Source of the DNA: Verrucomicrobiota bacterium
GTDB taxonomy: Bacteria > Verrucomicrobiota > Verrucomicrobiia > Limisphaerales > CANJSG01
Direction of reading: 5' to 3'
DNA: 64,000 bases
Assembly: GCA_038209745.1 (NCBI GenBank)
Contig: JBBQXJ010000003.1
Span: forward strand, 1-64,000
In this document: piece by piece, positions 29,548 through 32,887 of the stretch
How the letters are laid out: the number at the start of each line of letters is the position of its first letter
How positions within the stretch are numbered: the first letter of the stretch is position 1
The notes under the pieces: generated by a model
The model's input: only the letters and a program-made list of their open reading frames with translations
What the model was told of the DNA's origin: nothing
Databases searched by the model: none
Translations under genes and position numbers: made by a program

Positions 29548-32500
29548 TCAGATCAGTGTCCGCACCTTGGCCAGGGCTTCGTCGAGTTTGGCGGCGTCTT
29601 TGCCGCCGCCGCGGGCGTTGTCGGGTCGGCCGCCGCCTTTGCCACCGACGATCGGGGCGATGGTCTGGATGATCTTCCCGGCTTGGGCCTGCTTGGTGAA
29701 TTCCGGCGTCACGGCGGCCACGAGGGACACGGCTACATCCGAACCGCCGCCGAGGACGATCACGCCCTGGAACCGGCTCTTGAGCGCATCGACCACAGCT
29801 TGGAGGAAGTCGCCGTCGGTGTCGCCGAGGTTGTGCACGATGAGGGGCACGCCGTTCACGGTCTGGGCGCGGCCGAGCAGTTCGCTGGCCGCGTTCGAGG
29901 CGTTGCGGGCGATGGCGGTCTTGAGTTGGCGTTCCAGTTCCTTCTGCTGGGCGAGCAAGGCGTCGAGCTTCTTCTCCAATTCGCCGACGGGCGCGCCGAT
30001 CTTGCCGGCAACGGTGCGGATGAGTTCGAGGTCGTGCTTCGCGGAGGCGTAGGCGCTGAGGCCGGCGACGGCTTCGATGCGGCGGACGCCGGCGGCGACG
30101 GCCGCCTCGCTGACGATGCGGAAGAGGCCGATCTCGCCGGTGGAGCGGGTGTGGGTGCCGCCGCAAAGCTCCATCGAATACCCATCCAGCGCTTGCGCAC
30201 GGCCACCTATTTGAACCACTCGCACCACATCTCCATACTTGTCGCCGAAGAACTGCATCACCTTCGGATTTCCCTTCACCTCGGAATGCGGGACCTCGAA
30301 CCATGACACCGGCTCGTTCTCCAAAATCTTCTCGTTAACCTTCAGCTCAATTTCGGCGACCTGCGCGTGGCTGAGGGGCGCGCTGTTGAAGTCGAAGGTG
30401 AGCTTCTCGGGCGTGACGTTGGAACCCTTCTGCGAAACCTCGCGGCTGGCCACTTCGTGAAGTGCCCAGTGGAGCAGATGCGTGACGGTGTGGTGGCGCT
30501 GGATGGCGGCGCGGCGGGCGGCATCGAACTGGACCGTGACGTGGGAACCAACGGCCGGGGCATCGCCGCCTTCGATGAAGTGCAGGACGGTGTTGCCGGA
30601 CTTCTGGGTGTTGACGACGCGCCAAAGCTGGCCGGAACCGGAGAGCTCGCCGGTGTCGCCGACCTGGCCGCCCATCTCGGCGTAGCAGACGGAGTTGTTC
30701 AGCACGACGACGGTCTTGTCCTTGAGCTGGACGACTTCCTGGACGTCGGCGCCGGTGTGGGTGTGGTCGAAGCCGAGGAAGTGGGTGGGCGTCTTGGTCT
30801 CGATCTGGGAAAGCTCGATGACCTGCTTCTTCTGGGCGGCGCGGGCACGGGCGCGCTGTTCGTCCATCAACTTCTCGAAGCCTTCCTTGTCCACCGTCAG
30901 GCCGCGTTCGCGGGCCATCAACTCGGTGAGGTCGAATGGGAAGCCAAAGGTGTCGTAAAGCTCAAATGCTTCTTTGCCGTTTATCCGATTCAAGACCAGC
31001 GTTTGCGCTTGCTCTGAAAAGAGTCTCAACCGGGCCAAGTGCCCTAGGGCGGCAACATAATTCTTTGCTCTGGCCGACTGAAGCAGACCAACCGCTTCGT
31101 CCTGCAGAAAAATGTCCCCTTCAATGATTCTGTGCCTAGCGTCTCCGGAGCACGCACTTTGGAAAAACTTTTCCACCTCAGTTAATTGAGTTTCTGTGAA
31201 AGCTTTTCTAACTAAGTTGGCTTCCCATTCGACAGGCATCTTGTTGATCGATTCGATCGCCAGTTTAAAAACGCCGAAACCTTCAATTAGCTCTTCGAAT
31301 CGGCGAATTCCCTTATCCAACGTCTTGTTGAACGACTCTTCCTCCAGCTTGAGCACGTCTTTCACCTGCTGCTGCTTGGCGCGGATCTCGGGGAAGACGT
31401 CGCCCATCGTCCGGGCGAGCACGTCCACCAGCTTGTAGAAAAAGGGTTCGTGGAACCCGAGGGTGCGGCCGTAGCGGACGGCGCGGCGCAGGATGCGGCG
31501 GAGGACGTAGTTGCGGTCGGTGTTGCCGGGCTGGATGCCGTCGGCAATGGCGAAGCTGAGGGTGCGGATATGGTCGGCAATGACGCGGAAGGCAATGTCG
31601 AGCTGGACCTGTTCTTTGGTGGCCGTAGTCGTGGCACCGGCAGAGTCACTAGCCACATCGTCGCCGGGCAGGGTGCTGCCGTATTTCTTGCCGCTCATCT
31701 TCTCCAGCTCGTCGAAGATGGGACGGAAGATGTCGGTCTCGTAGTTGGAGATCTTGGCGTTCTGGAAGTCGGTCAGGCCCTTCGTTCCCTGGAGGATGCT
31801 GGTGACGCGCTCGAAGCCCATGCCGGTATCGACGTGCTGGGCGGGGAGCGGGCTGAAGGTGCCGTCGGGGTTGGCGTTGTATTGGATGAAGACGTTGTTC
31901 CAGATCTCGATGCAGCGGGCGTCGGAGCCGTTGACGAGGAGGGCGCCGGATTTCTGGGTGTCCAGATCGGTCTGCACGGGGCCGGGGCGGAGGTCGACGT
32001 GCACCTCGGTGCAAGGACCGCAGGGGCCGGTCTCGCCCATCATCCAGAAATTGTCCTTCTTGTTGCCGTTGACGATGTGGACGTCGGGATCGAGGCCGAC
32101 GGAGCGGAACTTCGCGGCCCAGAGATCCCAGGCCTCCTGGTCGCGGTCGGCGGGATCGTTCTTCGACTTGTCGGGCTGGTAGATGGTGGCGTAGAGGCGG
32201 TGCGGGGGAAATTTCCAGACTTCGACGACCAGTTCCCAGGCCCAGCCGATGGCCTCGGGCTTGAAGTAGTCGCCGAAGGACCAGTTGCCCAGCATCTCGA
32301 AGAAAGTGTGGTGGTAGGTGTCGAGGCCGACGTCGTCGAGGTCGTTGTGTTTGCCGCCGGCGCGGATGCACTTCTGGGTATCGGCGGCGCGACCCGGGGA
32401 ATAGGGGCAGGCCGTCTCGCCGAGGAAGATGGGGACGAACTGGTTCATGCCGGCGTTGGTGAACAGCAGGTTGGGGCTGTCCGGCAGGAGGGAGGAGCTG

Positions 32501-32571
32501 GGGACGATGGTGTGTTGCTTCGACTTGAAGAAGTCGAGGAACGACTGGCGGATCTGGGTGCTGGTCATCAT
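29548..32571 (-). CDS. alaS: Alanine--tRNA ligase carrying a ~90-aa internal insertion
   Basis: LLFTNAGMNQF, TQKCIRAGGKHND, TFFEMLGNWSFGDYFK, DTGMGFER, LYDTFGFP, HTVTHLLH, ELCGGTH, GGKGGGRP. Confidence 0.97.
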   Translation of the reverse strand: MMTSTQIRQSFLDFFKSKQHTIVPSSSLLPDSPNLLFTNAGMNQFVPIFLGETACPYSPGRAADTQKCIRAGGKHNDLDDVGLDTYHHTFFEMLGNWSFGDYFKPEAIGWAWELVVEVWKFPPHRLYATIYQPDKSKNDPADRDQEAWDLWAAKFRSVGLDPDVHIVNGNKKDNFWMMGETGPCGPCTEVHVDLRPGPVQTDLDTQKSGALLVNGSDARCIEIWNNVFIQYNANPDGTFSPLPAQHVDTGMGFERVTSILQGTKGLTDFQNAKISNYETDIFRPIFDELEKMSGKKYGSTLPGDDVASDSAGATTTATKEQVQLDIAFRVIADHIRTLSFAIADGIQPGNTDRNYVLRRILRRAVRYGRTLGFHEPFFYKLVDVLARTMGDVFPEIRAKQQQVKDVLKLEEESFNKTLDKGIRRFEELIEGFGVFKLAIESINKMPVEWEANLVRKAFTETQLTEVEKFFQSACSGDARHRIIEGDIFLQDEAVGLLQSARAKNYVAALGHLARLRLFSEQAQTLVLNRINGKEAFELYDTFGFPFDLTELMARERGLTVDKEGFEKLMDEQRARARAAQKKQVIELSQIETKTPTHFLGFDHTHTGADVQEVVQLKDKTVVVLNNSVCYAEMGGQVGDTGELSGSGQLWRVVNTQKSGNTVLHFIEGGDAPAVGSHVTVQFDAARRAAIQRHHTVTHLLHWALHEVASREVSQKGSNVTPEKLTFDFNSAPLSHAQVAEIELKVNEKILENEPVSWFEVPHSEVKGNPKVMQFFGDKYGDVVRVVQIGGRAQALDGYSMELCGGTHTRSTGEIGLFRIVSEAAVAAGVRRIEAVAGLSAYASAKHDLELIRTVAGKIGAPVGELEKKLDALLAQQKELERQLKTAIARNASNAASELLGRAQTVNGVPLIVHNLGDTDGDFLQAVVDALKSRFQGVIVLGGGSDVAVSLVAAVTPEFTKQAQAGKIIQTIAPIVGGKGGGRPDNARGGGKDAAKLDEALAKVRTLI

Positions 32572-32594: not shown

Positions 32595-32671
32595 CCGTAG
32601 CCGCCGGGGTCGGGAGGCGGTCCGGAAGGACGCTAAGCCCGAGGTCCGCCTCCCGACCCCGGCGGCTACGG
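32595..32671. repeat. REPIN-like inverted repeat (GTAG class) with 26-bp perfect arms
   Basis: CCGTAGCCGCCGGGGTCGGGAGGCGG (32595..32620) and its exact reverse complement (32646..32671). Confidence 0.85.
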
Positions 32672-32757
32672 AAACGGGAGATAGACGCTAGTCAGCCGGG
32701 AAATGGCAGGCGAGAGGGAAGTTGGCGCGCCGAGTTCAATCCTGATTTTCAGACTCT

Positions 32758-32796
32758 TAGACAAAATATAGACAAAACATAAACAAGAATTTGACT
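32758..32796 (+). promoter_or_regulatory. Putative CarH/LitR-type operator (11-bp direct repeats, TnnACA)
   Basis: TAGACA 32758, TAGACA 32769, TAAACA 32780 and TTGACT 32791, exactly 11-bp period, in an AT-rich island upstream of the fasciclin gene. Confidence 0.65.
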
Positions 32797-32887
32797 CTTC
32801 GATTTTGCCAACAATGTTCTGTCCCTAAGAAGCAGCGGATTATCCGGCTGCATCGGAACGAAAAACCTAACCCTCAGGAACTGCACT

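Follow-up and report, generated by a model that had tools for sequence, protein, structure and literature searches.

How does an essential, conserved gene come to hold, in frame, a block of DNA whose composition departs from that of the sequence around it? The question is raised by alaS, the gene for alanyl-tRNA synthetase (AlaRS), in a stretch of 64,000 nucleotides (the window) from a Verrucomicrobiota bacterium (assembly GCA_038209745.1, contig JBBQXJ010000003.1, positions 1 to 64,000 of the forward strand). A reading of the bare sequence, here called the original prediction, had proposed that a foreign helical domain arrived in this gene on short alaS homology arms. We found that a sharply bounded segment of 361 bp has been exchanged between alaS alleles that are nearly identical elsewhere, and we consider it probable that this segment is an allelic in-frame cassette, exchanged by recombination and tolerated by the enzyme as a structural extension. 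In the following, G000 is the window's own genome, and G001-G005 and other G numbers are related genomes. P0001 is the AlaRS of the window, P0002 the insert peptide and P0004 a protein from public metagenomes. X1-X4 are metagenome runs, and site A and site B are loops encoded by alaS, site B being the loop of the cassette. The gene, the insert and its left flank lie as follows.

29548..32571, minus strand: alaS coding sequence, 1007 amino acids plus stop, from the list of open reading frames (ORFs); a class II alanyl-tRNA synthetase with editing and C-Ala/DHHA1 domains.
30985..31308, minus strand: insert proper (P0002), an orphan module; residues 422-529, 108 residues, 324 bp.
30946..31306, minus strand: exchanged cassette, 361 bp with a GC (guanine plus cytosine) content of 0.474; residues ~423-542 (RRFEE...ELYDTF), with bounds taken from the points where X3 and X4 contigs depart.
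31309..31323, minus strand: TLDKG motif, left conserved arm and part of the backbone; residues 417-421, shared with the other allele in X4 contigs.

The host protein is an AlaRS of class IIc. It matches the Pfam families PF01411 (catalytic and tRNA-recognition domains, 594 bits), PF07973 (second additional domain of the editing region, 59.6 bits) and PF02272 (C-terminal DHHA1/C-Ala, 45.3 bits), all above the curated cut-offs, and an AlphaFold2 (AF2) model of residues 1-600 was matched by Foldseek to catalytic fragments of AlaRS (5knn_A, E-value 3.3e-27, TMt 0.83). With TLDKG at residues 417-421 and INGKEAF from residue 530 onwards, 108 residues separate the two conserved blocks, as the original prediction had counted. 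In human AlaRS the corresponding blocks of the alignment are 2 residues apart, and insert-free relatives have ~19-26 residues from TLDxG to LYD; T417, L418, D419 and G421 are invariant in 33 sequences. The GC content of positions 30961-31320 is 0.472 versus 0.63-0.65 in the flanks, equal to the earlier hand count of about 47%, and across the whole window 361-nt segments with a GC content of 0.50 or less are confined to the insert, its lowest-GC stretch. The GC content at third codon positions (GC3) drops from ~0.87-0.97 to 0.43-0.60 over residues ~418-545. This internal dip, 0.51 over 80 codons, ties for the lowest among the 1,626 scorable long ORFs of the genome, that is, those of a crude whole-genome ORF set for which such a dip, bordered by codons of high GC3, could be evaluated. 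The low-GC insert is real and far from chance, and it lies in an intact frame, the single ORF 29548..32571, as had also been stated. AT-rich codons had been said to reach into the conserved motifs on both sides. This applies on the right, where the AT-ending codons of INGKEAFELYDTF belong to the exchanged segment, but not on the left, where the codons TTG GAT AAG GGA are common to the relatives' other-allele contigs and are thus backbone and not cassette.

The genome is a draft of 140 contigs with a completeness of 92% and a contamination of 2.6%, and many related populations share k-mers in alaS; both facts would suit a chimera of assembly or binning, in which sequence of a lower-GC organism was spliced into alaS. 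However, a Logan contig of 790 nt from X1, an independent build, spans positions 30709-31498 including both junctions with 0 differences. X1, which contains 0.90 of the sampled words, is possibly the sample of origin. X2, a run of another study, covers part of the cassette (30977-31130) with one difference, and a homologous in-frame insert occupies the same site in G020, with frame and helix register kept. The X1 contig, the X2 coverage and the G020 homologue together make a chimera very unlikely. Uncovered parts in X3 and X4, and partly in X2, were not scored as absence; RNA runs contained at most 0.08 of the sampled words.

The alternative allele was recognized through P0004, which was found by a protein-index search with the diverged AlaRS residues 728-800. 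This protein of 1166 residues is 100% identical to the AlaRS of G000 over residues 728-800 and at least 99% identical outside two loops, with few differing positions in residues 1-422 and 547-1007. At site B it reads GIALFNDNAAS..., followed by a complete in-frame transposase domain of the RAYT (REP-associated tyrosine transposase; REP, repetitive extragenic palindromic)/IS200-like kind and then by ...ISGAFAFRLYDEQGFPL; at site A it has 19 extra REP-like residues. Such proteins are named 'alanyl-tRNA synthetase/REP element-mobilizing transposase RayT' by the Joint Genome Institute (JGI). Relatives' contigs from X3 and X4 have flanks 97-99% identical to the window and depart from it exactly at 30945/30946 and 31306/31307, and their overhangs translate to AFAFRLYDEQ and IALFNDNAAS, as in the P0004 allele. 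Record 24 of X4 follows the window over 30600-30945 (5 differences in 346 nt), record 27 of X4 over 31307-31569 and record 19 of X3 over 30713-30945 (2 differences), each then passing into P0004-type sequence. The near-identical backbone and these switch points identify the 361-bp segment as a cassette exchanged by recombination. What is seen is the pattern of a recombination mosaic: a sharply bounded non-homologous segment, a near-identical backbone and an alternative allele in related populations. The swap and its breakpoints bear out the idea of a foreign helical module on short alaS homology arms at an exchangeable site; the swap itself contradicts the accompanying suggestion of a hitch-hiking domain that is hard to lose.

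We propose that the module entered by homologous recombination within alaS, with crossovers in the flanks coding for TLDKGI and GFP(F/L)DLTEL. The loop that it displaced would be that of the nearest known allele, a canonical loop interrupted by an in-frame RAYT cassette of the IS200-like, HUH (His-hydrophobic-His) type. The RAYT cassette of P0004 is 79% identical over 235 residues to that of G004 at site B, with backbones at 86-95%, and this shared cassette suggests that the RAYT state is probably the older one in the lineage and that the helical module took its place. The probable donor is a different alaS allele, one already carrying the module, and not an unrelated gene. Immediately to the right of the insert (residues 530-546) the nucleotide identity of G000 to G020 is 0.78 versus 0.59-0.69 to congeners, as fits a donor allele of the G020 type. 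In X2, a soil metagenome, a contig over 30886-30963 presents a third allele in which the codons of ELYDTFGFPFD are identical, including the AT-ending ones, and the sequence upstream reads ...VGSIDGKFVF; the right end of the cassette therefore occurs with at least two interiors.

What the module itself is was asked of a range of collections. The insert matched no Pfam family at an E-value of 1 or less. No PHROGs family was found (best E-value 0.15), phage and plasmid collections contained no relative of the insert, and none of 37 pattern matches in viral contigs was confirmed, so that these sources give no mark of a phage- or plasmid-derived module. Pattern matches in JGI metagenome contigs likewise gave 0 confirmed of 262. 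HMMER, run against 1.84 billion representative proteins, returned a single match, P0003, a repetitive unrelated protein that we regard as spurious; a word-indexed search of a 5.8-billion-protein index with residues 425-528 recovered, among 334 candidates, the query itself only, and ESM Atlas gave scores of at most 0.81, all from short AlaRS fragments. Among 401 genomes of the order (G000 included) the module was matched in G020 only. A weak match in G380 was rejected, as it falls in a MutS gene. Scanned by pattern, the genomes of all species yielded a single locus, with 51% identity, which is that of G020. The G000 genome holds no further copy of the insert, as DNA or as peptide, of the kind that a multi-copy selfish repeat resembling the Rickettsia palindromic element (RPE) would leave, and promoter-like sites in or near the AT-rich stretch numbered 0, with 0.8 expected.

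Two ways in which the block could be something other than a resident protein module were weighed against its sequence. An in-frame foreign block in an essential gene is the typical setting of an intein, and an intein, or an intron, would be removed before the enzyme works. The insert, however, begins with IRRF and ends with VLNR, followed by ING: it has no Cys, Ser or Thr at its start, no His-Asn at its end and no +1 nucleophile (Cys, Ser or Thr), and the absence of intein hallmarks had been read correctly from the outset. Rfam gave no family at the gathering score and so no sign of an intron or RNA element (two sub-threshold matches, the best at 22.6 versus 50 bits and the other at 18.1 versus 45 bits), and the amino-acid conservation over saturated synonymous change described below also speaks against removal, which we consider exceedingly improbable. 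The other possibility is that a REP/RAYT cassette once occupied the loop and decayed, leaving the insert as its remnant, an idea encouraged by the RAYT cassettes that occupy exactly this loop in P0004, G004 and G005. Yet neither a Pfam match, Y1_Tnp (PF01797) included, nor a HUH motif or catalytic Tyr was found in the insert. It has no flanking REP-like hairpins and no genomic copies, its sole inverted repeat having arms 269 nt apart. BLASTP ties it to no RAYT insert, and it replaces the ends of the loop, whereas RAYT cassettes sit within an intact canonical loop. It is also predicted to be all-helical, and HUH domains have an alpha/beta fold. Descent from a RAYT cassette is therefore highly unlikely. 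With intein, intron, repeat and assembly artefact all set aside, the insert is an orphan module that is probably all-helical. In the AF2 model of residues 1-600, built with 33 sequences, the host helix runs on into the insert and is followed by four more helices (predicted at residues 400-443, 447-454, 460-473, 489-501 and 505-525), with a predicted local distance difference test (pLDDT) score of 66-93 per 10-residue block over residues 421-530. The module, of ~100 residues, would extend the helical hairpin in the domain that recognizes the tRNA, immediately upstream of the YDTxG motif.

The comparison with G020 indicates that the module is a translated part of the reading frame. The G020 insert lies at the same alaS site, has the same length and aligns without gaps; its 51% identity to that of G000 is arranged in conserved blocks, in which 55 of the 108 residues are invariant. 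Over the 108 codons the proportion of synonymous differences (pS) is 0.88, which is saturated, and that of nonsynonymous differences (pN) is 0.36. Saturation of the former and not of the latter implies that the insert peptide is translated and constrained and, to judge from these codons, the module is under purifying selection. We propose that the module is translated and probably retained in the mature AlaRS. The alaS gene of G020 (L041, G020:C147:73-3981, minus strand) encodes 1303 amino acids and contains two cassettes at once: site A is occupied by a 273-aa RAYT whose REP-like ends are duplicated, and site B by the helical module.

The original prediction had named a check for an insertion hotspot, namely whether relatives carry, at this position, inserts that differ in length and are unrelated to one another, and this came out positive in three sets of sequences. 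In the first, alaS was aligned from 38 of 41 genomes (G002, G017 and G022, present as fragments only, were left out), and three sites with variable inserts were apparent. At site B, 11 of the 38 genomes have 55-211 extra residues, and BLASTP joins these inserts into no more than three groups. Within the genus the extra residues number 91 in G000, 59 in G001 and 56 in G003, the last two being weakly alike; G004 (202 aa) and G005 (211 aa) both carry RAYT cassettes, which are 51% alike and each nearer to site-A cassettes of other genomes. In the second set, 67 of 76 metagenome loci could be parsed and yielded 16 non-RAYT inserts of at least 45 aa and 5 RAYT cassettes. In the third, 118 of 120 related proteins were parsed; 18 have a canonical loop (27 aa or less) and 100 an expanded loop or a RAYT, with 22 loops of 28-44 aa, 44 of 45-99 aa, 22 of at least 100 aa and 12 RAYT by motif, a count made with a motif pattern that missed at least one RAYT-like sequence. 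The G000-type module occurs in the metagenome loci and the 118 proteins only in this genome's own protein. Judged by these three sets, site B is a clade-wide hotspot whose occupants are mostly unrelated to each other, and many unrelated in-frame inserts would come and go there throughout the clade. We considered whether the long helical inserts of G008, G009, G010 and G035 are remotely homologous to each other and rejected the idea (22-29% identity with many gaps).

A second hotspot and a second divergent patch lie in the same gene.

31603..31665, minus strand: loop of site A, second hotspot; residues ~303-323, LPGDDVASDSAGATTTATKEQ, from the alignment.
30187..30366, minus strand: second divergent patch, in the editing domain; residues 736-795, GC3 0.60-0.80.

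Site A holds in-frame RAYT cassettes of 211-273 aa in G020, G027, G039, G029 and G040 and REP-like segments of 46-52 aa in G005, G006, G023 and G025. With a Y1_Tnp cut-off of 23 bits, the cassettes of G004 (30.3) and G008 (28.8) pass, and those of G020 (17.1) and G005 fail. The alaS gene of G008 (L047, G008:C178:4000-8500) is split into two frames at site A within its RAYT cassette, the N-terminal 305 residues lying in a frame of 398 aa and the remainder in one of 1040 aa; either a frameshift introduced in sequencing or a genuine split of the gene may account for this. The sole RAYT-like place in the G000 genome is outside the window, at C11:4545-4859, in frame in the middle of an ORF (C11:3258-8339, minus strand, ~1,400 aa) that by eye looks like a sugar kinase in its N-terminal part and a nucleotidyltransferase in its C-terminal part; its HUH and YIAENP motifs are intact. 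In the patch of the editing domain many positions at which 37 relatives agree have another residue, with many substitutions that none of these relatives shows, and pS against congeners is 0.62-0.70 compared with ~0.2 elsewhere. The patch is 100% shared with P0004 and hence predates the swap at site B.

Low GC3 is not peculiar to the G000 module. All 9 non-RAYT inserts of at least 55 aa in the 38-genome alignment, and all 16 of at least 45 aa in the metagenome loci, lie below the rest of their gene, with typical values of 0.33-0.69 versus 0.67-0.87; RAYT cassettes are only slightly lower than their genes. The G020 copy is as AT-rich as that of G000 (GC3 0.52-0.56 in a gene of 0.86) despite saturated synonymous sites, which makes low GC3 a long-lived property of the cassette family and not only a mark of recent arrival. 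Its source would be either an AT-richer mobile pool or the escape of heterologous loops from GC-biased gene conversion or codon selection. A higher GC3 is reported for recombining bacterial genes (PMC4450053). These observations lend themselves to another account, of an old, vertically inherited, lineage-specific expansion whose low GC3 arose in place by such an escape, with no horizontal arrival: the composition of the G020 copy, the 25 of 25 non-RAYT inserts that are AT-richer than their own gene at any host GC3, and the GC3 report just cited are all in its favour. It is nevertheless unlikely, since P0004 and the X3 and X4 populations, near-identical elsewhere, do without the insert, four congeners hold other site-B states, and G000 is nearer to G020 than to its congeners just right of the insert. 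Decay in place may explain the composition of the cassette family, not its presence in G000.

Two other places in the G000 genome have the next-deepest internal GC3 dips with high-GC3 flanks over 80 codons, at 0.56 in C22 (plus-strand ORF of 581 aa, offset 54807) and 0.59 in C18 (plus-strand ORF of 1119 aa, offset 29007); they might be further in-frame low-GC inserts. Intergenic DNA upstream of alaS (window positions 32650-32874) has a cassette-like GC content of 0.42-0.50.

What the module does was approached through its position beside the residues that read the tRNA.

30943..30957, minus strand: Y539-D540-T541-F542-G543, aligned to residues 375-418 of E. coli AlaRS (3hxu) and equivalent to E. 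coli Tyr399-Asp400-...-Gly403.

Passages in PMC6055181 describe E. coli Tyr399, Asp400 and Gly403 as contacting the G3:U70 pair of tRNA-Ala. The counterparts Y539, D540 and G543, and N350 for Asn303, are invariant in the 33 sequences, and the insert ends 10 residues before Y539 of the YDTxG motif. One tRNA-Ala gene (GGC) was found, and it has the canonical G3:U70 and A73. The isoelectric point (pI) of the module is 6.2 in G000 and 9.2 in G020, so that no net charge is conserved. Retention of G3:U70 and A73 in the tRNA and the lack of a conserved net charge make it most likely that the enzyme tolerates the module as a structural extension: the module would be a passive addition to a solvent-exposed loop, with no catalytic part.

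The same location invites an adaptive account, compatible with exchange by recombination, in which the module is functional and its turnover adaptive: a variable surface or binding module beside the reading head for the acceptor stem, kept polymorphic by selection. Candidate pressures would be factors targeting AlaRS or the charging of tRNA-Ala, or the eviction of RAYT. Two wholly different cassettes on near-identical backbones, many unrelated insert families at one loop, purifying selection within the G000/G020 family, a loop 10 residues from the Tyr, Asp and Gly given as G3:U70 contacts in those passages, and the removal of a transposase domain by the G000 swap would all agree with it. However, the two known copies show no mark of diversifying selection (pN 0.36 versus pS 0.88), a result that gives no backing to the variable surface against phage or toxin factors raised in the original prediction; no conserved charge suggests RNA binding, and the tRNA-Ala(GGC) retains its canonical G3:U70 and A73. 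We also know of no factor that targets AlaRS. On balance we regard such a function, or selection for variability, as rather unlikely and return to the exchanged, structurally tolerated cassette as the better explanation.

Several points weigh against that explanation. The breakpoints derive from short metagenome contigs of other populations, and P0004 was compared as a protein; the DNA encoding it was not among the 76 metagenome loci returned, the best of which had 84% identity. No donor was found, the sole other copy, in G020, being 49% different. Retention of the module in the mature protein rests on sequence, and an insert only 10 residues from those that read G3:U70 could affect tRNA recognition. 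Folded alone, the insert showed the same helical pattern at a mean pLDDT of only 44.5, for which reason we take no more than its all-helical character as supported; the AF2 confidence within the insert rests on two sequences, and the catalytic core is poorly predicted in the model of residues 1-600. A perfect inverted repeat of 17 nt also remains unexplained by the proposed exchange.

31217..31233, no strand assigned: inner arm, 17 nt, inside the cassette, in the codons of VEWEAN; from a repeat search.
30931..30947, no strand assigned: outer arm, 17 nt, straddling the right breakpoint, in the codons of FGFPFD.

The arms are 269 nt apart, and we estimate that ~2e-5 such repeats would be expected by chance in 900 nt. 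The repeat is not conserved in G020. An origin of the insert by inverted duplication of flanking alaS was rejected, as there is only a 15-17-nt exact match with no collinear extension.

The module can be set beside several known systems. Like the RAYT cassettes in alaS of P0004, G004 and G005, it occupies the same loop of an essential gene, in frame, and its presence varies among close relatives; unlike them it has no transposase domain, hairpin ends or genomic copies, and it would lack self-mobility, having been carried along when the gene around it underwent homologous recombination. Interspecies recombination has also produced mosaic essential genes such as the penicillin-binding protein genes of Streptococcus pneumoniae and Neisseria, which share with the G000 gene a sharply bounded divergent block in a near-identical essential gene and crossovers in conserved flanks; the G000 block differs in being a non-homologous module of other length, with no selective agent known. 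RPEs, which Ogata and colleagues are said to have described in 2000, are reportedly selfish repeats lying in frame in protein-coding genes, essential ones included. They resemble the G000 case in that an extra in-frame peptide is tolerated in surface loops of housekeeping proteins, but they are short, palindromic and multi-copy, whereas the module has 324 bp and is single-copy and non-palindromic. The idiosyncratic insertion domains known from aminoacyl-tRNA synthetases are stable across large clades. The module is likewise a lineage-restricted addition to a loop of a conserved core, but it varies between genes that elsewhere share at least 99% identity, and its loop has many other, unrelated occupants. 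With inteins it shares the setting, a foreign in-frame block in an essential conserved gene, but not the splicing residues, and it is probably kept in the protein. By kind, then, it is a mosaic essential gene or a synthetase insertion module. Our literature searches found no description of an orphan non-transposase cassette of this sort or of its exchange against RAYT.

Aminoacyl-tRNA synthetases are taken to be stable markers with vertical inheritance. In the present case a single loop of such an essential enzyme, beside the residues of alanine identity, acts as a cassette site, and most relatives hold yet other inserts in it. In practice, alaS of this clade varies widely in length and local composition, and trees built from it will be mosaic. 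The locus offers a natural system for the birth and tolerance of new domains in essential enzymes, for the removal of an embedded transposase from a host gene and for the persistence of AT-rich inserts in GC-rich genomes. A more far-reaching possibility, which we put forward as a doubtful one, is that of a true cassette locus, in which self-mobile RAYT cassettes and orphan AT-rich helical domains, the latter drawn from a dedicated mobile pool or arisen de novo, circulate by recombination among co-existing strains and are kept polymorphic by selection, for instance by a factor that targets AlaRS or tRNA-Ala charging or through eviction of the transposase. If that were so, site B would be a nursery in which new domains arise within an essential enzyme.

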